A stretch of DNA of 64,000 nt, taken from Parcubacteria group bacterium Gr01-1014_31. Lineage in GTDB: Bacteria > Patescibacteriota > Patescibacteriia > Buchananbacterales > GWA2-38-13. Under the pieces are notes generated by a model. That model saw nothing but the letters and a program-made list of their open reading frames with translations, made no database searches and was not told the DNA's origin. The position numbers were made by a program, and so were the translations under genes. The first letter of the stretch is position 1. Every line of letters starts with the position of its first letter. Positions 5,201-46,903 of this stretch are shown here, one piece after another. The stretch is from assembly GCA_007376135.1 (NCBI GenBank), contig VMFR01000007.1:24287-88286 (forward strand), in the 5' to 3' direction.

Positions 5201-5302
5201 GTGCTGCGCAAGACCAATGCCCTCACGATTACCACCGGAACGGGAGGAGAGCCGGTGACGCTGAACGACCGCGCAATTCTGCTGCGGATATCCAAGGTAT
5301 AA
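2222..5302 (+). CDS. ileS: Isoleucyl-tRNA synthetase
   Basis: 1026 aa. HIGH-region PPTANAAPGVHH, WTTTPWTLPGN (IleS CP1 signature), KMSKS, zinc-knuckle Cys pairs, and a C-terminal anticodon-binding region. Confidence 0.9.
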   Translation: METEEPRQKKSWPAEEEIILARWQKGKIFSKTLARKSPKGNFVFYEGPPTANAAPGVHHVLARVFKDIIVRFRTMQGYHVERKAGWDTHGLPVELQVEKKLGLKSKPEIETYGIAKFNAECRELVWQFKDDWEKLTERIGFWLDLKRPYVTYENDYIESVWSVIAKAHARELLYQGHKVVPYCPRCGTSLSSHEVALGYRKIKEDSVYVKCRVTVGNQFVQKGDFILTWTTTPWTLPGNVALAVGPDIDYVLVEFSDQKRDEEGNVGHFRAVVAKSIFELWKNHHDLPHDSPHFQFIREGGIEYFSGILTDKGEGAGGNRPPKVIHEFRGKDLVGVEYKPLFPGAVEKGNAKVTWQVVPADFVTTTDGTGVVHTAVMYGEDDYRLGEQVGLPKQHTVGLDGKFLPRVTGLAGKYVKAKDTQELIYDHLKRNGAFMQTALYEHDYPFCWRCDSPLLYYAKDSWFVAMTKVKDELLKNAEQISWEPAHIKEGRFGEWISGVKDWAISRERYWGTPLPVWECRGGRSRKQEAGSRESAGEGCGHWQVVGSVAELKKLAKKIPKDLHRPFIDAVTFSCAACGGTMRRVPEVMDVWLDSGSMPFAQYHYPFENEELIDGKLSTTKSKKTYKLPPTSYKLGAQYPADYICEAIDQTRGWFYTLLAVSTIMGKGTSYRNVICLGHINDASGRKMSKSKGNIVNPWDVINKFGTDPLRWYLYTINQPGEAKNFDLKQIDEVVKKVFLILQNVVAFYRLYVPNPKAQVVPPRTEHVLDLWILARISQLSVTVTEALSRYGVIEAARPMSDFITDLSTWYVRRSRDRFKAGDPEAMATLGYVLLQTAKLLAPFTPFFAEYVYREVGGKLASVHLEDWPKRESVDPVALEAMTKARAVVTEGLALRMSAGLKVRQPLAAVTGPAIGAELQDIVKEELNVLEYRTGTTVALDTAMTDQLRVAGLARELVRCINNLRKAAALTVADRIAVTYDGALDDVLASHRDEVLRKTNALTITTGTGGEPVTLNDRAILLRISKV
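3790..3817 (+). repeat. Heptanucleotide tandem repeat (aagcagg)x4 inside ileS
   Basis: Direct reading of ...cagaagcaggaagcaggaagcaggaagcaggg... It encodes a low-complexity insert (RSRKQEAGSRESAG) between the zinc-knuckle cysteines. Confidence 0.8.
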
Positions 5303-20977: not shown

Positions 20978-22108
20978 CTACCCGCCCCCGAATTGCTGTT
21001 CGATGCGGCGGTAGGTGAAGGCGGAAATATCGCGTATGATCTTCACGAGTGCATCAAAGTCGCTTCCTCGGGTCATGATGCACAGTAGGTATGGGCGTTG
21101 CGGATGGTAGATGATGCCGCAATCGTGGAGCTGTTTATCGGGGCTATCCTTCTGGCCGCGCTCGCCAAATTTGTGCGCGACGGAAACCCCTGGGTCCACG
21201 CCGGCGGGGAGCCCTTTTTTGAAATCAGTTTCGGTCAGGAGACGCAACACCTGCTCCGATTCGTTAATACCGAGATAGGAAGCATTGTAGAGGATACGGA
21301 AGAACGAAGCATACGTTTTGGCCGTGATGAAATAATCCTGGCCCCCAGGCGCCACCAGTCCAAGGTCTTGAAAGGTTTTTTCCAGTTCATCGTCGCCGAC
21401 CGCGTTTTTGAGCAACGTGGCGGCATTGTTGTCGGAGTATTTTACCATCATCATCGCCAACTCTTCTACCGTGAACGAGGCTCCCGGCGTCTGCTCCGGC
21501 GACTGGATGTGCTGGGTAAAGGCGCTGGGGCCGGCATCGCGGTAGGGTATCACGCTCCGCAATAATTCTGGATTATCGCGGCTCAGCCGGTAGACGGTCA
21601 TGAGGATGGGTACCTTCAATAGGCTGGCGGGGATGAAGTCGTCCTGTTCATGAATGCCAAACCACGGGCCGTTGTTCAGGTCGCGGAAATAAACGGAAAT
21701 TTTTGATGCCCGGCCATCGTCGACCATATCGTCGACCAGTTGCACCATATCGTAGCGGAAGGGGCGCAGATGTTGGGCTAAATATTCCTGGCCTTGGTCG
21801 CACTCCAGGAGCGGGTTGACCAGAGTATATTTCCCACGCCGGACTTCGCGCAGGCTGTCCGGCGTCAGTGGGGAGAGGGAGGAGAGCATGGTTCCGGCGA
21901 TGCCCAGCCCCACGCCAAGGAGAAGTATGAAGAACGCGGCGATTCCCGTTTTCGCCCGTCGATGGCTCGGCGACCGTGCTGCGTCGAACGGTTGCATAGT
22001 ATTGCCGTTATCGTACGGCATCATATTCGCCGCGTCCAGTTTCACATCCGCCGCGGTTGCGGCTTGATCGATCGTTCGTCTCAGGGCCGGGAGAATTACA
22101 TAAACCAT
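20978..22108 (-). CDS. Class-A beta-lactamase-fold serine hydrolase-like membrane-anchored protein. The true start is probably internal, between 21997 and 22024.
   Basis: SxxK (SLLK), SDN (YSDNN) and KTG-variant (HKFG) motifs. N-terminal TM helix IAAFFILLLGVGLGIAG. The ORF-track start codon lies inside the palindromic repeat. Confidence 0.6.
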   Translation of the reverse strand: MVYVILPALRRTIDQAATAADVKLDAANMMPYDNGNTMQPFDAARSPSHRRAKTGIAAFFILLLGVGLGIAGTMLSSLSPLTPDSLREVRRGKYTLVNPLLECDQGQEYLAQHLRPFRYDMVQLVDDMVDDGRASKISVYFRDLNNGPWFGIHEQDDFIPASLLKVPILMTVYRLSRDNPELLRSVIPYRDAGPSAFTQHIQSPEQTPGASFTVEELAMMMVKYSDNNAATLLKNAVGDDELEKTFQDLGLVAPGGQDYFITAKTYASFFRILYNASYLGINESEQVLRLLTETDFKKGLPAGVDPGVSVAHKFGERGQKDSPDKQLHDCGIIYHPQRPYLLCIMTRGSDFDALVKIIRDISAFTYRRIEQQFGGG

Positions 22109-22128
22109 AAAGTATTACTTCACGGTTT
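22104..22128. repeat. 25-bp palindrome copy 2 (AACCATAAAGTATTACTTCACGGTT)
   Basis: Same sequence as 20934-20958, in direct orientation, overlapping the 5' end of the beta-lactamase-like ORF. Confidence 0.7.
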
Positions 22129-22199
22129 GTACATTTTATGGTAGGTTGGGGATAACCCGGACTGTCAGAAGCGGTCCAGGGTTTGCGGCAGCCGTCGCG

Positions 22200-22416
22200 T
22201 ATGCCCGGTAGTACAACGGGCTGGCGCTGAAGGTGGGAGCCGGCGCAATGAAATTACATTGTGTAGCTCGGACCACTCAAACTCGACCGTTGTCCTATCG
22301 GGTTATGCCCCGTAGTACAACGGACTGTCGGTGAATGGGGTATAAGTTCACGAAGAGGGCTAAAATCGTGAGTTTTGCGAGCATACGTCAATGCCGTTGT
22401 CCTACGGGGTATGCCC
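22200..22416. promoter_or_regulatory. Repeat-laden 5' region: four copies in alternating orientation of a ~22-nt element (T)ATGCC(C/G)GTAGTACAACGG. The last copy overlaps the MerR start codon.
   Basis: Copies at 22200-22219 (+), 22281-22309 (-), 22305-22323 (+) and 22394-22416 (-). Copies 2 and 3 form a 37-nt imperfect palindrome. Confidence 0.5.
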
Positions 22417-22667: not shown

Positions 22668-24998
22668 ATGTTTCGTGGGCGTCGCCGGGCTAAACACAAG
22701 GAATATCGTTCATCGCGTTCCGCGTATGACCGGTACTACCGCGCGGACAGCGCGCGCCGCCGCCGCACGCTGCGCCAGAAGTTTGCCGACATCCCCGTGC
22801 ATACGAAGCGCGGCATCGCGAGCGTCGTCATTTTGGGGGTGAGCCTGTCGCTGTTGCTAGCGTTGCTCGGGCTGGCGGGGCCGGCCAGCGTCTCCCTGAC
22901 CAAGTGGCTGCGGTCGCTCATGGGCGCGATGCGCTGGTTGTTACCCGGCTGCCTGCTGGTGTTGGGGTATCTGTTGGCGCGCCCAGATACTGAGGGTTGG
23001 CTGCCATTACGATGGCTGGGTGCATTCTTGTTGTTCTCCGGGATGAGCGGTATTGCCCATTTGCCGCAGGCCAGCGGTACCTTTGCCGAAGCGAAATTCG
23101 GCCGGGGCGGCGGCATGCTGGGCTATGCGGTTTCACATTGGCTGACGTCGGCGTCCGGGGTTTGGGTATCGCTCGTCGTGCTGCTGGTGGTGGTGACTAT
23201 CGGCGTCTTTTTGTTCTTCAATACCTCGTTTGCCCATCTGGCGGCAGCGATGACCTGGCTGCAGGGAACGTTTGCCGCCTTGCGCCAGCACCTCATCCGT
23301 CGGCGCGTCAAACAGCTGCAGGCCGAGCGGGAACAACCCGCGTTACCCGTGCCCGTTGAAACGTCAAGTATTTTCCACCCGCAGAAGGTTCCCGCGCCGG
23401 AAGCGGCCGACGAGGATGAGGAGAGAGATAATGAAGAGACATTACCGGCGCCGGTCGAGGGCGACGGAGTTCTCGCGGCCGCCGTAAAAAAGCCGCGCCG
23501 CCGGGCTCCGCGCAAGCTTGACTTGCCCTTGTCGCTTTTGACCGGACAGGCGGGGAAACCGACCAGCGGCGACATTAAGGCCAACCAGTATTTGATCGAA
23601 AAGACCCTCAAGAATTTCGGCATCGAAGCGGAAATGGGTGAAGTGAGCGTTGGGCCGACGGTGACGCAGTATACGTTGAAACCCGCCGACGGGGTCAAAC
23701 TGTCAAAGATCGTCAGCTTGTCGGATAACCTGGCGCTGGCGCTGGCCGCGCATCCTATCCGCATTGAAGCTCCGATCCCCGGCCGCTCGCTGGTGGGCAT
23801 CGAAGTTCCCAACCAGACCACAGCCATCGTGCCGCTGCGGCAGGCGCTGGATTCCGACGAGTTCCGCCAGCGCCGGTCCAACCTGATGGTGGCGCTCGGC
23901 ATGGACGTCAAGGGCAAACCGTGGCTGGCGGACCTCTCCCGCATGCCCCACCTGCTGATCGCGGGGGCCACCGGTTCGGGCAAGAGCGTGTGCATCAATA
24001 CCATCATCGTCTCGCTGCTGTACCAAAACAGCCCCGATGACCTGCATTTCGTGATGGTGGACCCCAAGCGCGTGGAATTGCCCATCTACAACGGCATTCC
24101 GCACCTCGTGGCGCCGGTCATCACCGACGTCAAAAAGACCATCAATGCGCTCCATTGGGCGATCCGTGAGATGGAGCACCGGTTCGATACCCTGGCGGCG
24201 GTACATAAGCGCGACATTGCCTCTTACAACGAGACGGCGGAAGAAAAGATGCCCTACATCGTGCTGGTCATCGACGAACTGGCCGACTTGATGGTGGCCG
24301 CCGGCCCTGACATCGAAGGTTCCATCATCCGCCTGGCCCAAATGTCGCGCGCGGTGGGCATTCACCTGGTGATCGCCACGCAGCGGCCATCGGTGGACGT
24401 CATTACCGGGCTGATCAAGGCCAACATTACGACGCGCATCGCCTTTTCGGTAGCGTCGCTGGTGGACTCGCGCACCATCCTGGACATGTCGGGCGCCGAG
24501 AAGCTGCTGGGGCGCGGCGACATGCTGTTCCTATCGGCCGAGATCTCCAAACCCAAGCGGCTGCAGGGCGCCTATGCCGCCGATGGAGAGATCAAGAGGG
24601 TCATTGACCACCTCAAACAGCAGGGTCTGCCGGAGTACGATCCCGAGGTGACGGAGCCGCCGAGCGGCGGGAGCGGTGTCATCTTCGGCGGCGGTCGGAA
24701 CGGCGGCGGGGACGATGATGGCGACAGCATGCTGGAGGCGGCGACCGACGTCATCCTGCGCTACCACAAGGCGTCCGCTTCGATGCTGCAACGCCGGCTG
24801 CGGATCGGGTATTCCCGCGCGGCGCGAATTTTGGACTTACTGCAAGAGCGGGGGGTGGTCGGCCCCGCAGACGGTTCCAAAGCCCGCGAAGTCCTGTTGC
24901 GGAGGGACCCGGGGGATGCTACCATTGCCCATGAAGAGCCATCTGACACCGACGACGTTGCCGAAGACGACGACGCCGCGGATGTCCCACCAGCGTAA
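22668..24998 (+). CDS. ftsK: DNA translocase FtsK/SpoIIIE
   Basis: N-terminal TM helices, Pro/acidic linker, motor domain with Walker A GATGSGKSV, C-terminal gamma (winged-helix) domain. Confidence 0.9.
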   Translation: MFRGRRRAKHKEYRSSRSAYDRYYRADSARRRRTLRQKFADIPVHTKRGIASVVILGVSLSLLLALLGLAGPASVSLTKWLRSLMGAMRWLLPGCLLVLGYLLARPDTEGWLPLRWLGAFLLFSGMSGIAHLPQASGTFAEAKFGRGGGMLGYAVSHWLTSASGVWVSLVVLLVVVTIGVFLFFNTSFAHLAAAMTWLQGTFAALRQHLIRRRVKQLQAEREQPALPVPVETSSIFHPQKVPAPEAADEDEERDNEETLPAPVEGDGVLAAAVKKPRRRAPRKLDLPLSLLTGQAGKPTSGDIKANQYLIEKTLKNFGIEAEMGEVSVGPTVTQYTLKPADGVKLSKIVSLSDNLALALAAHPIRIEAPIPGRSLVGIEVPNQTTAIVPLRQALDSDEFRQRRSNLMVALGMDVKGKPWLADLSRMPHLLIAGATGSGKSVCINTIIVSLLYQNSPDDLHFVMVDPKRVELPIYNGIPHLVAPVITDVKKTINALHWAIREMEHRFDTLAAVHKRDIASYNETAEEKMPYIVLVIDELADLMVAAGPDIEGSIIRLAQMSRAVGIHLVIATQRPSVDVITGLIKANITTRIAFSVASLVDSRTILDMSGAEKLLGRGDMLFLSAEISKPKRLQGAYAADGEIKRVIDHLKQQGLPEYDPEVTEPPSGGSGVIFGGGRNGGGDDDGDSMLEAATDVILRYHKASASMLQRRLRIGYSRAARILDLLQERGVVGPADGSKAREVLLRRDPGDATIAHEEPSDTDDVAEDDDAADVPPA

Positions 24999-26823: not shown

Positions 26824-29520
26824 ATGGAGGGGGAAAGAATACCGACGCGGTCATTTTTGCGATTTTTGTCGCTAGGTGCACTGGCGATCGGTTTTTTGGT
26901 CCATCCTCCATTCCCGGCGAGCGGCCAAACCTGCGTGCCGGATTGGTCGTGTACGGTGTGGTCAGTCTGCAGCGAGGGCACGCAAACGCGCACGTGTTCC
27001 GACCTGAACCTGTGCGGCGCGACGCGCGTGCCGCCCGAACAGCAAGCCTGCGTGGTGGGTCCGGAGATTATCACGGATGTCATTCCGACCGGCGGGGACC
27101 TGTCCGGGAACCCGACTCCAGCTCCCGGACAAGCCGCCGGCTGCAGCCCCAGTTGGTACTGCTCCGCTTGGTCGGCCTGCGAGAGTAACGCGCAGACCCG
27201 TACCTGTATTGATGCGAACGAGTGCAATACGACCGCAGGACAACCGGCGCAGTCGCAGTCGTGCGATGCGGCGGCACCCTGTTTTCCAAGTTGGAGCTGC
27301 AGTTCGTGGTCCACTTGCCAGGATAATCTGCAGACCCGTACCTGCGCGGACGCCAATACCTGCGGCAGCGATGATGGCAAGCCGGCGACAGCGCAGGCCT
27401 GCACCGTCGTGCCGGCGGCAACTCCGACTCCGACGCCGACGCCCGCACCGACGCCCACGCCGGCGGAAGTACTACCACCGGTGAACGGGCCGGATACCGT
27501 CGCGCCGGCGATTTCCGCAGTCGCGGTAAGCGGCGTGACGCAGAATCGCGCGGCCGTGACCTGGACGACGAATGAGCCAGCTGACAGTACCGTCCGCTAC
27601 GGCATCGGCCAGACCAATTTGACCGCAGCCGACAGCGCGCCAGTCACGGTGCACGGCATTGTTTTGAATAATCTTTCCGCCGGCGCGACCTATACGGTCG
27701 GGGTGAGCAGCCGCGATGCGGCCGGCAACACGGGCTACGCCGATGCCTTCAGTTTTACCACCCCGGCAGAGCCGTCCGCTAGCGACACGTTCCCGCCGGC
27801 CATTATTGCCGTCAGCATCAGCGCCGTGACGTCCAGCGGGGCGTCGGTGACCTGGCAGACGGATGAAGCGGCTGTGAGCAGCGTCGCCTTCGGGGTAACG
27901 ACCGGGTACGGCAGTAGCGCGACATCGGCGGGCGGCGCGCGGACCACACAACATGGAGCCACCCTGACCCCGTTGTCGGCTGGCACGCTCTACCACCTGC
28001 GGGTCACCGCGATGGATGCGGCCGGCAACATGGCCATCTCGCCCGACCAGACGTTCGCCACGCCGGCTGCTGCGGCGGACGCCGATGGCGACGGGGTGCT
28101 CAATACCGTTGATTCTGACGATGACAATGACGGGGTATCCGATACCCAAGAGGCAGCGGCGGGCACCAACCCGCTGCAACCGGACACCGACGGCGACGGC
28201 ACATCGGACGCCAGTGATCCGTTCCCACTGCTGACCACCGAGAACGGCGACGCCGACGGCGATGGCATCGGTAATGCGGTTGACCCCGACGATGACAACG
28301 ACGGTTTGCTTGATGCTCACGAGCAAGTCCTGGGGACCAATCCTTTGCGGGCGGACACCGACGGCGACGGTACCCCGGACGCCAGCGATCCGACGCCGCG
28401 CAGCGGCGGTGCGGTGACCGGGAGTGCGAGCGATACCGACGGCGAAGGCTTGTTAGACGCGATCGAGCAAATATTAGGAACCAGCGCCGCAAGTGCCGAC
28501 ACCGACGGCGACGGCGTTTCCGACCGCGACGACCCTTTTCCGCGCGACCCGCAGGAAAGCCGTGACACCGACGGCGACGGCCGCGGCGATAATGCCGATA
28601 CCGACGATGACAATGACGGGCTATCGGACGTCCTGGAGCGGCAACTCGGTACTTCGGGGGTAGCGGCCGATTCGGACGGCGACGGCGTTTCCGACCGCGA
28701 CGATCCGTTCCCGACCATAGCGGCGCTTCCGGCGTGGGCGCAGAGCGCGGAAAACGGAGGCAGTACGGTCTCGGGGACCGCGGCGGTGAGCGTTCCGCCG
28801 CGATTTGCCAGATTGGTCCGCAACCAGAAGGGCGAACTGTTCCTTTTACTTCCCAGCGGGATCCGGCGTCCGTTCCGCCGTCCACAGGACGCATCACGGT
28901 TTGGCTTGCGGGCGGACACCGCCGTGCTGGTCGACGATGCCACATTGGCGAAATATCCGCTCGGGGCCGCGATCGGTCCTGACGAGCAGGGGGTACTGGA
29001 GTGGCTTGATACCGACGGTGACACGCTGTCGGATGCGCGCGAATTAGCGCTGGGCACCAAGCCCTGGCAATCGGATACTGATGGGGATACCTTCAGCGAC
29101 GGCGACGAACAGGCCAAGGGGTTTGACCCTCTCTACCCGCCGCAGCACGCGTCGCCGACCCCCGAGCTGGTGGCACGGGCGCGCGGGCGCGTGATTGCCG
29201 GTGTTGATCATCCCCAGCCGTTGTACTACGTCCTTCCCGCGCGCGGGTGGCGCGTGCCGTTGCCGGACGAGGCGACGTTCTGGACGGTGGCGCGTGCGTT
29301 CCATCTCCCCGTGCCGGCAGGCCGGCTGCAGACGCTGCCAGCAACTGCCGCCGATGGGCAGTTGCTCTTGGATGGGCAGGACGGCCGGCTGTACTACCGT
29401 CGTGCGGGCGTAAACCTCCGCCTGCAGCCGGGACAGGTTCTGACGCAACTGCGTACCTCGGCGCTGACCCTGACCGCTGACGAAGTTGCGTTGCTTCCCT
29501 ACCGTTGGGTGGCGCGTTGA
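26824..29520 (+). CDS. Large secreted Ca-binding protein: signal peptide, four Cys-rich QTRTC repeats, two FN3-like domains, at least ten thrombospondin-type-3 repeats, C-terminal domain
   Basis: Signal RSFLRFLSLGALAIGFLV. Repeats C.P.W.C..WS.C....QTRTC.D.N.C occur four times. DTDGDGVSDRDDPFP-type repeats throughout the middle third. Confidence 0.75.
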   Translation: MEGERIPTRSFLRFLSLGALAIGFLVHPPFPASGQTCVPDWSCTVWSVCSEGTQTRTCSDLNLCGATRVPPEQQACVVGPEIITDVIPTGGDLSGNPTPAPGQAAGCSPSWYCSAWSACESNAQTRTCIDANECNTTAGQPAQSQSCDAAAPCFPSWSCSSWSTCQDNLQTRTCADANTCGSDDGKPATAQACTVVPAATPTPTPTPAPTPTPAEVLPPVNGPDTVAPAISAVAVSGVTQNRAAVTWTTNEPADSTVRYGIGQTNLTAADSAPVTVHGIVLNNLSAGATYTVGVSSRDAAGNTGYADAFSFTTPAEPSASDTFPPAIIAVSISAVTSSGASVTWQTDEAAVSSVAFGVTTGYGSSATSAGGARTTQHGATLTPLSAGTLYHLRVTAMDAAGNMAISPDQTFATPAAAADADGDGVLNTVDSDDDNDGVSDTQEAAAGTNPLQPDTDGDGTSDASDPFPLLTTENGDADGDGIGNAVDPDDDNDGLLDAHEQVLGTNPLRADTDGDGTPDASDPTPRSGGAVTGSASDTDGEGLLDAIEQILGTSAASADTDGDGVSDRDDPFPRDPQESRDTDGDGRGDNADTDDDNDGLSDVLERQLGTSGVAADSDGDGVSDRDDPFPTIAALPAWAQSAENGGSTVSGTAAVSVPPRFARLVRNQKGELFLLLPSGIRRPFRRPQDASRFGLRADTAVLVDDATLAKYPLGAAIGPDEQGVLEWLDTDGDTLSDARELALGTKPWQSDTDGDTFSDGDEQAKGFDPLYPPQHASPTPELVARARGRVIAGVDHPQPLYYVLPARGWRVPLPDEATFWTVARAFHLPVPAGRLQTLPATAADGQLLLDGQDGRLYYRRAGVNLRLQPGQVLTQLRTSALTLTADEVALLPYRWVAR

Positions 29521-32969: not shown

Positions 32970-35957
32970 ATGGAGCCGCAAATCAGGACTCTCGTGAAAG
33001 CTTCCGTGGCTACCACCGCTTCTGCTGCGGCAATGTTGACCGTCAGCGCGGTGGCTTTATTTGTGTCGTGGGGATCAATGATGGTTGCCGTTGGCGGGTC
33101 GCTGGGAATTCAGCAAGCCAGATCAACTATCCCAACATCAGGTCTCAGCCTGTCTAAGAGCGAGAGCATTACGTGCCCGAAGATTTTGTATAGAACTTTT
33201 GATTTTGCTACATCGAAGGCCGCCGATAGTATTGCCGAAAGCAAGGTGTTGCAGCTCAAGGAAGATATAGCCCGTCAGGCCAGAATTCGTCAGGTTGAGC
33301 GCTCATTACGAAGGGTGGTTGAGGGGAAAAAGAGCATTACCGATCTTGGGGAGCAGCTTGTTCAGTATCAAAATGCCTTTATTAACCTGATGCGGTCAGA
33401 ACCAACAGCGGCGCTTCGGTATCTCCCTGATCAGGACATGCTCGATTCATTCGGAGAAACAACAGAAAACTGCTTACCCAAGGAAACCCATGAAACCGGC
33501 AGTATGCTGGTGGTACATGCGGATGATTTTGAGAACGAAACGAGTAAAACCGAATATTCCATAAAAACCGAATTTGGGAAGAAATTAATCCTCCATTTCA
33601 CAAAGCAGGATAAATTCATGGAGTCGCGCACAAAGATCAAAATCGCCAAGGGGTATGAGATAAATGGAGAGCTATTGGTAGAGGATTATGAAGTACTATC
33701 GCAACCCGGCAATCCTCCGGCCCTTGGCCCCCAGAAGACCATCGTGGTCGAGATTCGGCCAAGAATTATCGTCTCTGGCGGCAGTTCTGCCGCCGTCGGC
33801 GATGCCTTTCTCACCCCAGAGGAGATACGGCAAGACGTTTTCACCTCAATCGCCCAATTTTATTCCCAGAATTCCTATAACCAACTTCAAATTGTGGGTC
33901 AGGATGGGTTGTCCGGAAATACCGATGATGTTATTGGGCCCGTTCCAATGGATATCACCATTCCAAAATTTTGGTGCAGTTTAGGCGGCACAGAACAGGC
34001 TTGCGAGCCAACCAATCCTCTTAATTGTGCGCGCGGTGATGGCGCCGGGTGTACGCCGAGGAACCAAAATTTATGCCAGCAGGGTGAAGTAAACGGAAGC
34101 TGTGTCCCGGAGTGCTCATTCGATGAACTGCAACAAAAACTCGTTGCCGCGATTGATCCCGTGATCACATTTCAGAATAACGAGCGCATCATTGGCGTTC
34201 TGCCGGAAATACTTTATTGCGGCTGGACCGGTATTGCCAATATAGGTTTAGCGGACACAAAAATCGCGGATGACCCAAATCCCATCCCGCTTTCTTTCAC
34301 TTTTGCCATTCCTCGCATTGGGAAGACGCGTGAAGAGAACAGATACTATGGGGTAAGAACCTTGGCGCACGAAATGGGGCACAATTATGGGAATTTACAT
34401 GCCACGATGTGGGCCTGCTCCAATACGAAGGACCAGGTGCAAAGCTGGGAGGGGCAATCACCGTGTTTCTATGAATACGGAGATCATTTTGATGTCATGG
34501 GGCGGGGTTATCTGCCGAACAGCAATGCCGTCTTAAAAGAAAATCTTGGATGGCTTCCGTCGCAGGACAATAACCATGAGATGCTTATACTTGGGGTAAC
34601 CGATGGCGGGACCTATACTCTTCAACCTATGGGAAGCGGTGGCGTGGAAGCAATAAAAATTCCGCGTAATATGCAAAATACTGATTTTCCAAATCTCTAT
34701 ATTGAATATCGGCGCCCCGAAGGACTGGACAGCAAACTTCCTGATTTTTTTGTAAAACAAGGGCTTGCTTCGGATGTCTTTGAGGGTGCCACGATCCATT
34801 TGGGTAATGCCATGGGCCAGTCATTTCTCATTGATGCCAAACCGCCATACACCACGTCTCTTATGACCGCCTTGCCTTTTGGTGGGAGCTATTATGATCC
34901 GTATTCGGGAGTGAGGATAACCTTAGGGAATGATTCGCCAGGCGGATTGCCCGTCACCATAGTATTTGAAGATATTGATAATGAAGGACCTTTCGTTTCA
35001 GGGTTGCAGAAAATCAGTTCACAAGACTGCGTGGTTGTTTATGAAGCCGCGGCACAAGACCCGAGCGGGATATCCAAGGTGGTGTTCAACCCCGCTCTTC
35101 CAGACCTTGCCCAAGAAGTGGCTGGTCCGCCATACCGTTGGGAAGTGAATTTGATGGATTATCCCGAACAGTATTTGTCCTTTCGGGCATACGACAATAG
35201 CCTGTTGAGGAATTATTCCGACAGCGAAAAAATGGATTTATGGGCGGATGAACCTTTGTGCGCGCATAACATAAAAGTGAAATTCTACTCTCCGTTGGAA
35301 AATTCAGTGCAGAGCAATACAGTAGCGTTTCGTTTCGACGTTTATTCACCGAGTGGGTTAATGCAGGTATTGTCCGACGTAACAGATGGATATGGCCAAC
35401 GTACGCGTATTATTGAAAATTGGATAACCGAACTCGGCCCTTCGGTGATGGAACGGTCATACCACGTTGAGGAAAATCTTATCGGCGGAAGATACCGTTT
35501 CGGCCTGGAAATTATCAATATGGAAGGGCGCACGTTGCGTTTTTTCCACTATTTTGATGTTCGTAATGCCTGCAACGACGGAATAGACAATGATCATGAT
35601 GGAACGATCGATTACGGGGGTGGAGGATCGGGCGGAGACCTCGGATGTGAGAGTGTTGATGATAATAGCGAGGAATCGACTTTTTATCGTTCTGACGTCG
35701 ACATGAGCGGGGGAGCAAATATGACGGATGCCATAATTATTTTGCGCCATTTATTTTTTAGTGACCCTGTCGCTCTTTCCTGCCAGGATGCCGCAGATGT
35801 TGACGATAGCGGGTTTGTGAATATCACCGATCCCATTTATCTACTAAAGTATCTGTTCGCTACTGATAATCCACCGCCGCCCGCGCCCTATAACCAATGT
35901 GGGCTTGATATGACCAGTGATACCATCGGCTGCCGCAGTTTCCCTTCCTGCGAGTAG
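32970..35957 (+). CDS. Secreted zinc metalloprotease (HEMGHNYGNLH zincin motif) with a C-terminal dockerin-like module. The gene is conspicuously AT-rich.
   Basis: HExxH...H motif at ~34370. C-terminal segment MTDAIIILRHLFF...LSCQDAADVDDSGFVNITDPIYLLKYLFATDNPPPPAPYNQCG matches the module of the 9036-11659 protein. Confidence 0.7.
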   Translation: MEPQIRTLVKASVATTASAAAMLTVSAVALFVSWGSMMVAVGGSLGIQQARSTIPTSGLSLSKSESITCPKILYRTFDFATSKAADSIAESKVLQLKEDIARQARIRQVERSLRRVVEGKKSITDLGEQLVQYQNAFINLMRSEPTAALRYLPDQDMLDSFGETTENCLPKETHETGSMLVVHADDFENETSKTEYSIKTEFGKKLILHFTKQDKFMESRTKIKIAKGYEINGELLVEDYEVLSQPGNPPALGPQKTIVVEIRPRIIVSGGSSAAVGDAFLTPEEIRQDVFTSIAQFYSQNSYNQLQIVGQDGLSGNTDDVIGPVPMDITIPKFWCSLGGTEQACEPTNPLNCARGDGAGCTPRNQNLCQQGEVNGSCVPECSFDELQQKLVAAIDPVITFQNNERIIGVLPEILYCGWTGIANIGLADTKIADDPNPIPLSFTFAIPRIGKTREENRYYGVRTLAHEMGHNYGNLHATMWACSNTKDQVQSWEGQSPCFYEYGDHFDVMGRGYLPNSNAVLKENLGWLPSQDNNHEMLILGVTDGGTYTLQPMGSGGVEAIKIPRNMQNTDFPNLYIEYRRPEGLDSKLPDFFVKQGLASDVFEGATIHLGNAMGQSFLIDAKPPYTTSLMTALPFGGSYYDPYSGVRITLGNDSPGGLPVTIVFEDIDNEGPFVSGLQKISSQDCVVVYEAAAQDPSGISKVVFNPALPDLAQEVAGPPYRWEVNLMDYPEQYLSFRAYDNSLLRNYSDSEKMDLWADEPLCAHNIKVKFYSPLENSVQSNTVAFRFDVYSPSGLMQVLSDVTDGYGQRTRIIENWITELGPSVMERSYHVEENLIGGRYRFGLEIINMEGRTLRFFHYFDVRNACNDGIDNDHDGTIDYGGGGSGGDLGCESVDDNSEESTFYRSDVDMSGGANMTDAIIILRHLFFSDPVALSCQDAADVDDSGFVNITDPIYLLKYLFATDNPPPPAPYNQCGLDMTSDTIGCRSFPSCE

Positions 35958-40200: not shown

Positions 40201-40707
40201 GCGCCGGTCGAGCGGGCATTGGCGGCCCAGCGGCCCTTGCAACAGCCCTTGTTCATCACCGAAGCGTCGGACCGGCTGGCCGTCGACACCGTACGCACGC
40301 CGCCGGAGGTTCCCGGCGGGGGAAGCGCGCTGCAGTTCCAGGGCCGTGGCACGCCTGACGAGGTGGTAACGCTGTTCATCTATAGTTCGTTGCCGCTGGT
40401 GGTGACCACGCGCGTCAATGCGGATGGCAACTGGACCTACAGCCTGCGCCAGTCGTTGCTGGATGGCGCCCATGAGGTCTACGTCACGGTCAATGATGAC
40501 ACCGGCAGCGTTGTTTCTCGCAGCGCGCCGTTGTCGTTCTTCATCCGTGAGGCGCGTGCCGTTTCCCCGCGCGACGTGTTCAGTCCCCCGCCCGCACCCG
40601 CGGCGTACCGTCCCGCCAAGCTGTACCTGCCGATCGCGGGGTTAGTGGTTTTTGCGGGTGTTTTCCTTTTCATCGCACTCTACGGCGCGTTGCGGCGCCA
40701 CGCGTAG
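37231..40707 (+). CDS. Large C-terminally anchored surface protein: signal peptide, several Ig-like beta-sandwich domains, a Cys-rich region, TSP3 repeats, C-terminal TM anchor
   Basis: AGGAGG lies 6 nt upstream of the ATG. Cys-rich segment ~39370-39790. DADGDGLPDD/DTDGDGFSDREE repeats. C-terminal LPIAGLVVFAGVFLFIALYGALRRHA. Confidence 0.7.
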   Translation: MADGNGGRGAVRRFRSAQSARRFGLAWLAGFFIATVALAQTGTMNSTAPVVAFVRPPSSPVAASTFLFASVSTPLSGLKQVEFSVHSATQTWKFPADYVPDLNLWKFYWELKDLPDDAYVVTAYAATTDDQYGKADLYLTVARGSGSESGGSGSTTDTSTSGTAEVPTASGGTTSSDTSSGGGGTAAPYVYISSPSSGTTVGSVLKLQAHASADIGAVTFSLDTTATAVSPDAIGSAVSLGNGLWEYAVAASSVPAGQYTVAVSGQAKETAVKGSNSITIIVPAPTTTLAPFGVAFRNPPVGPISSDKYLFVQSTASTVTLQRVNFRVEGVGINRGYDGAPVPDLGLFQLYWELKDFPDGSYRITADAQSADGRQAATELYLVVTRTGTTSAPPVLQFTWLEPKVSLLQGKVTVVVSTDPAVGVLQLRFLGPVNGSLQPALVSGRWVATWDTTNLPAGAYQLVAVVIQSGVATESKPWAVHVASAVEPTIAEDDSDLLVLTPKSQSVLQKEAIFSGTAAGATNVRLTLKNELRAYALPGALVRPDGGWELLWDTRKAVNGAYTLLAAAEFPDGAVVGPSIPVEVNNETITAAPAEAVNDNQPPSVWLGPDRTVTTPVVALHGAVKDDGKPVPPGRLTHRWSSPEGGVAFSPPDALDTKAQFSSSGKYTIRLEVSDGVRAGRDELVVIVALPQAEDKEQVAPPPLAQLVTPVIVLPQECRAVGITNADACKRWMFEHVREQNCPSGGAAKSACVDQQRRESLPAECIREGIADVAACQNYLDRRTLPEVCWKAGKGTRTECERWLREQLFEPACQQVGITETIACEQYLKERLSPTLACRLSAAATCGPVVDRQLPTIVAGEQRLEELNNAVGERLKTPITLDPEQQRVLPTAGARPTVEQVVPFALIAPLPVQFVPSQGAVVVRKDESITVAGPAVVVLDADGDGLPDDVEERLGSNPAAADTDGDGFSDREEVANGYSPTVAGSIPAAVAPVERALAAQRPLQQPLFITEASDRLAVDTVRTPPEVPGGGSALQFQGRGTPDEVVTLFIYSSLPLVVTTRVNADGNWTYSLRQSLLDGAHEVYVTVNDDTGSVVSRSAPLSFFIREARAVSPRDVFSPPPAPAAYRPAKLYLPIAGLVVFAGVFLFIALYGALRRHA

Positions 40708-40717
40708 TTCTGCCGCC

Positions 40718-40827
40718 TATGCCCGGTAGTACAACCGACCAATCTATCTTTAGCGCCCACCGCCGTTCTTCCGCGTCACCGATTCCCCCCTTTTTCTACA
40801 CTCGACCGTTGTACTACCGGGTATGCC
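40718..40827. promoter_or_regulatory. Inverted pair of the ~22-nt ATGCCCGGTAGTACAACCG element flanking a 60-nt spacer. The 3' copy overlaps the histidine-kinase start codon.
   Basis: Forward copy 40718-40740, reverse copy 40800-40827. The two can form a ~18-bp helix that includes the AUG at 40823. Confidence 0.5.
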
Positions 40828-42223
40828 TCGCCCATCGGTGTTGAAACGAATGTTTGCCGATGAGCGGGTGCAGATCGGCTACGGCTTGTTGTTGATCCTC
40901 TTGATACCGAGCGCGATCATCGTCGCGACCGTTGCCACCATCGCCCGCTACAGCCAGACCATCGATATTACCCTGCAGCGGCAAGCATTGCTGGTGGGGA
41001 GGGTGTTCGGGGCGACGGTATGGGAGCAAGGGATCGCTCCCGTGACGTTGCAGCGCCGCGTGGAAGCGGTCGCCGCCGCCAACGCCGATATTCTGGGGTT
41101 GCAGGTGTTCACGCCCCATCGGGACGGTTTTGAGATCATCGCGAGTGTCGTGCCCGAGCAGGTCGGGACTGTGGCGGCGTCGGCCTACTATACCTACGCC
41201 TGGCAGCAAGCGGAGCGCGAAGGTTTGGCCACCGATTACCTCGGCGAGCCGTTGTTGGGCAGCCGTGCCGGCGCCAGCACGGGGGATCGTTACTGGCTGG
41301 TAACGCTGCCGCTGTTCGCCGACGTCGAGGGGGACGGCCACCGCGAGCGCGTCGCGCTGCTATCATTGCAGCTGTCGTCGGGCATCGTCGACGAGCAAGC
41401 GGCGGCCAGCTGGCGGTCGGCGGTCATCGGCCTGACGTTCACGGTCCTGCTGACCGTGCTGTTCTTGGCGGCGGCCACGCGGTTGTGGAGTTACGCCACC
41501 CTCTATCGTAAGATCAAGGAGGTCGACCAGATGAAGGACGAGTTCATTTCCATCGCCAGCCACGAGCTGCGCACGCCCATTACTGCCATCCGCGGCTATG
41601 TGTCGATGGCCATCGACGGTGATTTCGGTTCGGTCCCCGAGAAACTCCGGACGGGATTGGAGCGCATCAACGGCGCCGGCAAACGTCTCGGCGACCTGGT
41701 CGAGGACCTTCTGAATGTCTCGCGCATCGAGCAGGGACGCCTCAGCGTGTCGTTCCAGCCGCTGGATCTGGGTGAGGTGACTGGCGGCGTCATCGAAGAG
41801 CTGCGGCCTACCGCCGTGCAGAAACAATTGACGTGCGAGTATGTCGCGCCGACGTCTCCGGTCAAGGTGATGGCCGACCCCGACCGGCTCAAGCAGGTGT
41901 TGTTCAATCTGGTCGGCAATGCCATCAAGTATACGCCCAAGGGCAGCGTGACGGTCACCGTTAGCCTGCAGGAGCACGGCGGCTGCGTGCGGGTCAAAGA
42001 TACGGGACTGGGGATCTCGGCGGCCGACCAGGCGCGCTTGTTCACGAAATTCTATCGCGTGGCGAGCGACCAGACCCGGGCCATTTCCGGAACCGGCCTG
42101 GGCTTGTGGATCACTCGTCAGCTGGTTTCCCTGATGCGCGGGGAAATCACGCTCGAAAGCATCGAGGGTACGGGCACCCAGGTGACCGTCGTGTTGCCAA
42201 CACCGAAGTCCGCCGCCACATAG
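40823..42223 (+). CDS. Sensor histidine kinase with two TM helices and a periplasmic sensor
   Basis: HisKA H-box SHELRTPITAIRGY; N, G1 and G2 boxes of HATPase_c. No cognate response regulator is adjacent. Confidence 0.85.
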   Translation: MPRPSVLKRMFADERVQIGYGLLLILLIPSAIIVATVATIARYSQTIDITLQRQALLVGRVFGATVWEQGIAPVTLQRRVEAVAAANADILGLQVFTPHRDGFEIIASVVPEQVGTVAASAYYTYAWQQAEREGLATDYLGEPLLGSRAGASTGDRYWLVTLPLFADVEGDGHRERVALLSLQLSSGIVDEQAAASWRSAVIGLTFTVLLTVLFLAAATRLWSYATLYRKIKEVDQMKDEFISIASHELRTPITAIRGYVSMAIDGDFGSVPEKLRTGLERINGAGKRLGDLVEDLLNVSRIEQGRLSVSFQPLDLGEVTGGVIEELRPTAVQKQLTCEYVAPTSPVKVMADPDRLKQVLFNLVGNAIKYTPKGSVTVTVSLQEHGGCVRVKDTGLGISAADQARLFTKFYRVASDQTRAISGTGLGLWITRQLVSLMRGEITLESIEGTGTQVTVVLPTPKSAAT

Positions 42224-46324: not shown

Positions 46325-46903
46325 TTACTTTTCAAATAATTTCCAATTCCAGCAGTTAGCGAAGTCATCCATGGCCGCGACGCGGTCGTAGATGTCCTTG
46401 GCGGCTTTGGTTTTGAAATATTTGGCTTGGCGCGCGAACATTCGCGCAGCCTGGACGTTGCCGGCTTCGGCATGGATCTTTGCCTGCAGCGCGAACTCCA
46501 GAGTGTCAGCGTCTTTGGCTATGCGGCCTTCCGGGGTGTCCGCATGTTCGTGCTGTTGCACGAGTTCGCCGATCTTTTCCGCCAGGTTTTTTGGCAATGT
46601 ACGCAGCTGGTCGGTGAGCGCAGCCAGTTCCCCGTCGGTTTTGTCCAGGTAACGTTTAGCGATCTTGTGGTGGTCGCCAATTCTCGCTTCGCCGTTATCG
46701 TGGAACAGGGCAATGGCCGCGCACCGTTCGCCCGATAACCCTTCCAGTTCGCCCAGCAGGAATGCCAGCTGCGCGGTGATGGCGACGTGGTCGGCCAACG
46801 AATCAGGCAGGACGCCCGCCACGTGCCAGCCCTCGCGCGTGTTGCGCTTGAGCATGTAGATTTCCGCCAGGAATTTGATGAAGTCGCCAGTCCTACGGGG
46901 CAT
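46325..46903 (-). CDS. HD-domain metal-dependent phosphohydrolase (YfbR-like)
   Basis: H...HD...D motif (LADHVAI...LFHDNGEARIGD). Confidence 0.65.
   Translation of the reverse strand: MPRRTGDFIKFLAEIYMLKRNTREGWHVAGVLPDSLADHVAITAQLAFLLGELEGLSGERCAAIALFHDNGEARIGDHHKIAKRYLDKTDGELAALTDQLRTLPKNLAEKIGELVQQHEHADTPEGRIAKDADTLEFALQAKIHAEAGNVQAARMFARQAKYFKTKAAKDIYDRVAAMDDFANCWNWKLFEK

Follow-up and report, generated by a model that had tools for sequence, protein, structure and literature searches.

A candidate MITE-like hairpin element that abuts start codons in a Parcubacteria lineage

The genomes of CPR bacteria (Patescibacteria) are small and streamlined, and both their mobile elements and their gene-expression signals are little known. 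Several families of short repeats from other bacteria can be set beside the repeat family described here. REPINs and BIMEs are paired inverted REP sequences mobilised by RAYT. Like our repeats, they combine two conserved inverted short repeats with a less conserved spacer, form hairpins of ~100 nt, occur in tandem arrays, contain a GTAG tetranucleotide and exist with two variants of the short repeat (the Y and Z REPs, comparable to the T and G types of arm described below). The attC sites of integrons likewise possess imperfect inverted repeats, a variable centre of constrained length, an oriented placement between genes and a conserved unpaired position. A different type of parallel is offered by the Neisseria REP2 repeats, which carry an ATG fused to diverse ORFs; along with the Borrelia IR sequences they are comparable to our repeats in standing directly upstream of many unrelated ORFs and in supplying the ATG start codon (PMC3184786). 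The most extensive resemblance is to the Correia elements of Neisseria (CREE/NEMIS), which are also ~100-bp non-coding sequences with terminal inverted repeats, short direct-repeat flanks and many dispersed copies. Correia elements are mostly situated just upstream of genes, and RNase III cuts their hairpins in mRNA (PMC10969869). They are co-transcribed and their arms form a long RNA hairpin, a structure that in our repeats is a prediction.

The stretch of DNA analyzed here, which we refer to as the window, is 64 kb in length. A repeat finder and our own scan of it recovered six 16-nt arms, which form the termini of three units, each 99-102 nt long. Each unit is preceded by YATG and consists of CCCSGTAGKACAACGG, 66-75 variable nucleotides and CCGTTGTMCTACSGGG, after which comes the (T)ATG of a gene. 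Two of the units are arranged in tandem ahead of merR and the third lies ahead of a histidine kinase gene:

22103-22147, + strand: probable merR promoter/operator block, with AACCATAAAGTnnnnCTTcAC, a -35 TTCACG at 22119-22124 and an extended -10 TGG TAGGTT at 22139-22147
22200-22203, + strand: left flanking TATG of unit 1, whose ATG (22201) opens the first uORF
22204-22302, + strand: unit 1, 99 nt, with T-end arm 22204-22219, variable interior and G-end arm 22287-22302; 64.7 bits
22303-22307, + strand: TTATG junction common to the tandem units 1 and 2, whose ATG (22305) opens the second uORF
22308-22409, + strand: unit 2, 102 nt, with T-end arm 22308-22323 and G-end arm 22394-22409; 76.4 bits
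22410-22413, + strand: right flanking TATG of unit 2, whose ATG (22411) is the merR start codon
22411-22656, + strand: merR, followed by ftsK at 22668-24998
40705-40710, + strand: -10-like TAGTTC (TAGTTT in the related locus L038), 8 nt before the left ATG of the kinase unit
40718-40721, + strand: left flanking TATG of unit 3, whose ATG (40719) opens a 41-codon uORF, 40719-40844
40722-40821, + strand: unit 3, 100 nt, with T-end arm 40722-40737 and G-end arm 40806-40821; 64.8 bits
40822-40825, + strand: right flanking TATG of unit 3, whose ATG (40823) is the start codon of the histidine kinase gene, 40823-42223

The first-pass annotation of this DNA had described a repeat family with alternating forward and reverse copies at the merR and kinase loci, and the arms are indeed present there, the T-end arms being the forward and the G-end arms the reverse copies. 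It had also placed the start codons of the two genes inside the reverse copy; the ATGs do lie at that arm, but those at 22411 and 40823 come 1 nt after its last G and hence abut the arm. The short uORFs at 22201-22230, 22305-22334 and 40719-40844 exist as ORFs. TATG is found on both outer sides of each of the three units, in direct orientation. Matches to the 15-mer CCSGTAGTACAACGG with up to 3 mismatches number 15 in the window as against 2.8 expected, a count equalled in 0 of 100 shuffles, and those to GTAGTACAAC with at most 1 mismatch number 8 as against 1.0 expected, which again no shuffle equalled. Arms at 29218, 29386 and 31841 were treated as chance matches because they are single, partnerless and located inside coding sequence. 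A covariance model built from 23 units detected no copies in the window beyond these three, in coding sequence or elsewhere. The window reaches the end of its contig, and an extra 8.5 kb upstream of it contains no units. On the minus strand, at 46889-46903, an HD-domain (YfbR-like) gene starts with ATGCCCCGTAGGACT (MPRRTG...), and its first 14 nt are identical to the T-end flank and arm (ATG CCCCGTAGGAC). The deposited call of this gene (192 aa) uses that arm-like ATG, which could be part of a remnant arm recruited as N-terminus or could have arisen by chance.

The proposal that forward and reverse copies pair into a helix ending at the start codon is borne out by the predicted folds at both loci. 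The three window units are predicted to fold into the long closing helix at -47.2, -48.3 and -32.2 kcal/mol (z = -3.6 to -4.6), and for the entire merR leader, in which the outermost arms are able to pair together as well, the predicted fold has -119.5 kcal/mol (z = -4.8). In unit 3 all 16 pairs between the arms are Watson-Crick with the exception of one mismatch near the inner end. When UAUG/UAUG is added to the arms, the predicted helix comprises 16-20 bp and ends at the AUG, the UAUG extension being formed via G-U pairs.

To place these units in a wider context we scanned one genome per species (185,579 genomes) with a query consisting of YATR and the exact arm; the YATR requirement biases the flank statistics and leaves the comparison of start codons with other YATG sites unaffected. 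The scan returned 24 loci, and ~20 copies beyond the window are found in one closely related MAG and a few other CPR MAGs. The close relative, JAUSGZ01 (FtsK identity 94%; hereafter the sister MAG), has 17 exact arm matches on 12 contigs and at least 16 copies. JBDRIV01 (36% GC) has matches on two contigs, and CAYJUW01, CAYJVS01 and JACQPY01 have one paired copy each. Partnerless single arms from Streptomyces, Chitinophaga, Acidobacteria, Nitrospirae and others were set aside as chance matches, in keeping with our own rough estimate of ~30 such matches for the pattern. A flank-free two-arm scan of JGI metagenomes gave 5 loci, of which 3 belong to the same clade and 2 to another, marine repeat. 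The latter, on marine metagenome contigs with 48% GC (L029, 755-852; L030, 56-153), are a similar-looking 98-nt unit whose arms have a doubled GTAGGACAATGG and which is bordered by GAGC to its left and by CTTG to its right, with a weak model score of 37.6 bits. Viral contigs, plasmids and phages yielded no matches, and Rfam has no family over either window locus at the gathering threshold or at E <= 5. A literature search with the arm sequence brought up only primer coincidences and the DgoR operator, and one for CPR leaderless genes or CPR MITEs brought up nothing.

The family that emerges is thus one of small (98-107 nt), multi-copy and dispersed units without a conserved ORF. In approximately 20 of the 23 units an ATG 0-1 nt past the G-end opens a real gene that encodes a protein of 81-466 aa with a Pfam domain. 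The genes concerned code for ribosomal protein S20, RNase P protein, QueA, a DHH phosphoesterase, MraY, DJ-1/PfpI, GatC, PCMT, an AI-2E transporter, FBA, TIM, a small multidrug exporter (SmMDR) and an aldo-keto reductase, to which the window adds merR and the histidine kinase. The exceptions are one unit located 52 nt upstream of a gene and one (L015b) between convergent genes. By comparison, start codons account for at most 15 of the 42 YATGS sites of the window that spare coding regions. This tabulation of downstream genes contradicts the earlier idea that the element is specific to regulatory genes: what it abuts is the start codons of functionally unrelated genes.

Comparison with related genomes provided the evidence for the origin of the units. 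At merR, the window and the sister MAG are distinguished by an exact 104-nt indel, corresponding to unit 1 and one tetranucleotide, in flanking sequence that is >90% identical; unit 1 is missing from the sister MAG, and unit 2 has a ~90% identical orthologous copy there (L022). Relatives at 66-77% FtsK identity have kept the rpoC-merR-ftsK synteny and the promoter/operator block and have no unit. In one of them (L033) the merR start codon aligns with the left TATG of the window, i.e. the left TATG of unit 1 is the positional homologue of the merR start codon in a unit-free relative. A comparable picture emerges for SmMDR, tpiA and fba, which follow one another in the sister MAG and are each preceded there by one unit: in relatives at 65-70% identity the gene order is unchanged, and the gaps measure 4-16 nt instead of ~100 nt and lead straight into the start codon. 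For the kinase, the ortholog of L038 displays the empty site GCGAA TATG CCCCGC and no unit, and in the sister MAG the contig ends within the ortholog. The sister-MAG genes that bear units have no orthologs in the window, which hence offers no close-range empty sites for them. Judged from these sequence comparisons the units are lineage-specific insertions, and accordingly they do not represent an ancestral control element of these genes.

The immediate surroundings of the units are in line with such an origin. Their direct-repeat flanks are TATG/TATG in most cases, with CATG/CATG in two units; L015b, the unit away from a start codon, has CTTG/CTTG, and in nine units whose flanks lay outside any search pattern identical 4-mers are found on both sides. 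In several units the left flank is unlike the right one (CTTG, TCTG, CCTG and TAGG versus TATG), a few left flanks having decayed. Units in tandem have one TATG in common, as seen in the window merR pair (with its shared TTATG) and in L028. The indel, the empty sites, the direct-repeat flanks and the tandem copies together point to a small, non-autonomous transposable element with a 4-bp target duplication, where the exact length of the latter could be read as 3, 4 or 5 bp and the empty sites come from fairly distant relatives (65-77% amino-acid identity). We infer that transposition was the mechanism of insertion. No transposase, integrase or RAYT (Y1_Tnp) was found encoded in the 64-kb window, and neither the window nor the 24 genome loci yielded an autonomous element bounded by these inverted repeats. 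In the genome collection there were likewise no exact-arm matches with the arms >150 nt apart or enclosing an ORF. Two further observations were made at the tpiA locus. In the sister MAG the TIM ORF runs through the T-end arm of the next unit (L024, reverse complement 5218-5256) and thereby gains ~13 C-terminal residues (…MPGSTTDRSNTAI) relative to its orthologs of 255-260 aa, the insertion having displaced the original stop codon. A relative at 69% identity (L036, 3465-3558) has a 94-nt tpiA-fba gap containing a different imperfect inverted repeat, AAGCAGTACGTAGG ... CCTACTGCGTACTGCTT, which stops 8 nt before the fba ATG and could represent a further palindromic element in a comparable location.

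All copies have a fixed polarity with respect to the adjoining gene. The interiors show a weak but significant resemblance to each other, and this only in the gene-sense orientation, in which 42 of 190 pairs exceed the control threshold as against 1 for shuffles; turned to the reverse complement, they are no more alike than expected at random. Under the covariance model every copy gains 20-45 bits on the sense strand relative to the antisense strand. The two arms are also distinguishable, with the gene-proximal arm usually having G at arm position 9 and being preceded by (T)TTGA or CTCGA, and the distal arm usually having T at this position and being followed by GGAC. Run over all fetched loci, the covariance model recovered no extra copy except for one weak match. 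The latter is truncated at a contig end (L032, 5204-5299; 18 bits, E = 0.024; arm CCCCGTGAGACAACGG) and may be a diverged family member in the 77% relative that has no unit at merR.

Conservation is concentrated in the arms, which are ~93% conserved, whereas the interiors of copies from the same genome are hardly alignable; the length of the unit is confined to 98-107 nt. Across the 23 units 89.6% of the cells of the terminal inverted repeats are paired, and the pairing ends abruptly after 16 bp. Each arm is in itself nearly palindromic (CCG-TW-GTAC-WA-CGG), with the tetranucleotide GTAG inside it. Half of the units have a U-C or G-A mismatch at the arm centre. Arm position 8/113 switches jointly (11 units have G:C, 10 have C:G and 2 depart from the rule), and the switch is seen even among units with related interiors (e.g. 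L004/L013 and L013/L023). This suggests either true pairing of the arms, in RNA or in single-stranded DNA, or recognition of both by one factor. As conserved arms and a joint switch are not what neutral decay of old MITE copies predicts, selection or a pairing requirement probably acts on the arms. No conserved RNA structure was found in the interior. A strand asymmetry of G-U wobbles was considered as a mark of RNA-level selection and was rejected, the 10 cells in sense and 7 in antisense not differing significantly.

We then considered the transcriptional context of the units. The block at 22103-22147 is conserved across five genomes (AACCATAAAGTnnnnCTTTAC ... TGGTAGGYT) and probably constitutes an autoregulatory operator with an extended -10 promoter; the consensus scan gave no canonical promoter at the merR locus. 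If transcription starts from this block, both units would lie within the 5' leader of merR-ftsK. Between rpoC and merR, on the minus strand, the window has a Beta-lactamase2-family gene (20978-22108), and the ATG of this divergent gene (22108) falls inside the block. The gene is absent from the sister MAG, in which only ~160 nt separate rpoC from the merR promoter, and this spot is variable in general, with a PfkB kinase gene in a more distant relative and nothing in another. At the other locus the -10-like box at 40705-40710 suggests that the kinase gene could originally have been leaderless. The start of this gene at 40823 is supported by the N-terminus MPR..LKR.F.DER, which is conserved in the 71% ortholog of L038; the deposited histidine kinase (457 aa) starts at 40850, 9 codons downstream of the repeat-abutting ATG.

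Similar boxes recur close to other starts. In the relative L032, TAGGCT is followed after 7 nt by the merR ATG, and among 21 units 9 have TANNNT 5-14 nt ahead of the left ATG, as against 8.9% of control YATG sites from the same loci (p = 4e-5). Several other genes of the window (e.g. those at 32970, 31689, 26824 and 37171) display -10 boxes of the TGnTATACT/TATAGT type 6-18 nt before the ATG (TGnTATACT-type boxes in several genes at 7-12 nt), and few clear Shine-Dalgarno sequences are visible; leaderless or very short-leader mRNAs may be common in this Parcubacteria genome. A promoter inside the unit was rejected by consensus scans at both loci: the bases from -12 to -7 before the ATG are GTMCTA (or TMCTAC one position downstream), without the key -10 positions, and the TTGACC within the unit is merely 16 nt from the ATG. 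No recognisable Shine-Dalgarno sequence is found in the unit, and no terminator is present at either locus.

With these features in hand the family can be compared with the systems mentioned at the outset. It has no sequence in common with Correia, REP2/IR, REPIN/BIME or attC, and Correia elements are its closest working analogue. The latter have 26-bp inverted repeats, a TA duplication and an IHF site, none of which is found in our units, whose flank is YATG and whose host belongs to a different phylum, the CPR. Unlike Correia elements the units abut the start codon exactly and in one polarity, and they combine diverged interiors with conserved arms. REP2 repeats lack terminal inverted repeats and bring their own promoter and ribosome-binding site; in our units no promoter or Shine-Dalgarno sequence is recognisable, and the ATG is a copy of the start codon that the gene already had. 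REPINs differ in being usually located at 3' ends or between convergent genes and are not known to have direct-repeat flanks. Furthermore, a REP has its own stable hairpin preceded by GTAG, while our arm has a self-complementary end of only 3-4 bp (CCG...CGG) with the GTAG internal to it. With regard to the attC R''/R' core (RYYYAAC/GTTRRRY), GTACAAC/GTTGTAC agrees at 6 of 7 positions but lies at the inner ends of the arms; moreover, the genes beside the units are syntenic housekeeping genes rather than cassettes, and no integrase was seen in the window. Finally, a MerR operator is a dyad within the promoter that is conserved along with the regulator gene, a description that does not apply to the units and from which they are set apart by the separate block at 22103-22147.

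The repeats are, in our view, probably copies of a MITE-like hairpin element whose insertion at YATG restores the start codon. Such an element, ~100 bp long, non-coding and bounded by the 16-bp terminal inverted repeats CCCSGTAGKACAACGG and its complement, would have spread in a Parcubacteria (CPR) lineage by integrating at 5'-YATG-3' in one polarity, leaving the tetranucleotide on both sides. Where the target is a start codon, the gene would retain an intact ATG right after the G-end arm, and a decoy ATG would remain at the T-end with the original upstream signals of the gene. Judging by the -10 boxes 5-14 nt before the left ATG, many of the targets may have been leaderless or short-leadered before the insertion, in which case the transcript would afterwards start near the left ATG and the whole unit would become its leader. 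Copies in the short gaps of gene strings would instead be transcribed as intercistronic spacers. In either situation the AUG would be located at the foot of a predicted helix of 16-20 bp, without a Shine-Dalgarno sequence, and our guess is that the helix depresses translation or makes it conditional. Ribosomes that initiate at the decoy AUG or complete the upstream gene might open it, as might a cut of the RNase III type within the helix, such as is known from Correia hairpins. A secondary effect of the unit on translation or RNA processing is thus plausible.

A simple MITE model gives no account of the start-codon preference, the fixed polarity or the conservation and covariation of the arms, and fixed polarity and start-codon preference are atypical of DDE transposition. 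One response is to regard the unit as a cis-acting RNA module selected by the host, possibly a domesticated MITE, in which the helix gates the AUG or provides a site for RNase III or another double-strand-specific nuclease that releases a near-leaderless mRNA in an organism presumed to have many leaderless transcripts, for which the RNase III cleavage of Correia hairpins is a precedent (PMC10969869). The stable predicted helices, the covarying position 8/113, arms far better conserved than the interiors, the fixed polarity and distance to the AUG, the tolerance of the unit ahead of essential genes, its position downstream of conserved promoters and the frequency of -10 boxes near ATGs in the window are all consistent with this reading. 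Yet the arms are conserved in sequence beyond what pairing requires and half of the units have the central U-C or G-A mismatch; in addition, the G-U pairs lack a strand asymmetry (10 versus 7 cells), the interior lacks a conserved structure, the orthologous genes of relatives manage without the unit and the genes concerned have no common function. On balance we hold such a module to be rather unlikely. We would place at about the same level, and offer only tentatively, a scenario that joins mobility with host retention: a mobile hairpin targets the start codons, which are also the transcription starts, of leaderless or short-leader CPR genes, and the host keeps it for the structured, processable leader that it gives, which would make it a transposon-borne, portable switch for translation or RNA processing, with a factor that binds or cuts the arms explaining their conservation and covariation and the polarity. 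The strict orientation and constant core could also reflect mobility of a non-DDE type, in which folded single-stranded arms, or paired ones, would be processed at a TATG core by an enzyme specific for site and orientation, be it of the tyrosine recombinase (attC-like), HUH/RAYT (REPIN-like) or IS110 type. The tandem junction arm-TATG-arm resembles a recombination site, the covariation suggests pairing of the arms, which are nearly palindromic and contain GTAG, and no DDE partner was found. We nevertheless regard this as improbable, for the arms misfit the attC R-box consensus, the cargo would consist of housekeeping genes in conserved synteny, REPINs are not known with direct-repeat flanks or start-codon abutment, and the window encodes neither a RAYT nor an integrase.

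The first-pass annotation had also entertained a shared operator and a leader-peptide or attenuation device, and neither of these holds, nor does a control device specific to regulators. An operator reading would take each arm as the binding site of a dimeric helix-turn-helix protein, for example of the GntR/FadR type with sites like TTGTAGTACAA, with arms ~85 bp apart looping the DNA over the gene start. The nearly palindromic and strongly conserved arm is compatible with this, and it has GTAGTACAA in common with the DgoR operator (PMC11705089), nine bases shared with a GntR-type operator that we take to be a coincidence. Protein binding needs no covariation between the arms, however, and the genes have no common function; the units are recent insertions missing from the orthologous promoters, the conserved merR operator lies elsewhere, in a block of different sequence that is kept in relatives without any unit, and the direct-repeat flanks and tandem copies would be left unexplained. 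We therefore deem this reading very unlikely. Even less credible is control of the downstream gene by translation of the MP(G/R)STT uORF, although most units do have a uORF from the left ATG, which in leaderless-type genes would be a 5'-terminal AUG. The uORFs are conserved only in the arm-encoded residues, range from 9 to 49 codons and stop at arbitrary positions, and no terminator accompanies them. Moreover, the uORF ATG has been lost in several orthologous or paralogous copies, having become CCTG at merR in the sister MAG, CTG at rpsT in two genomes and TAGG at tpiA. The MP(G/R)STT uORFs are best seen as a by-product, as they follow automatically from the decoy ATG and the arm.

The repeats described here have a practical bearing on annotation, since a decoy ATG along with a repeat can mislead the calling of start codons and break assemblies, as illustrated by the kinase called 9 codons short and by its sister-MAG ortholog truncated at a contig end. 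The units and the many -10 boxes situated right before ATGs also hint that leaderless mRNAs could be common in this lineage. For an element of the MITE-like kind favoured here, the regeneration of the start codon, the presence ahead of essential genes and the single orientation would imply either an unusual choice of target or selection for a hairpin leader.
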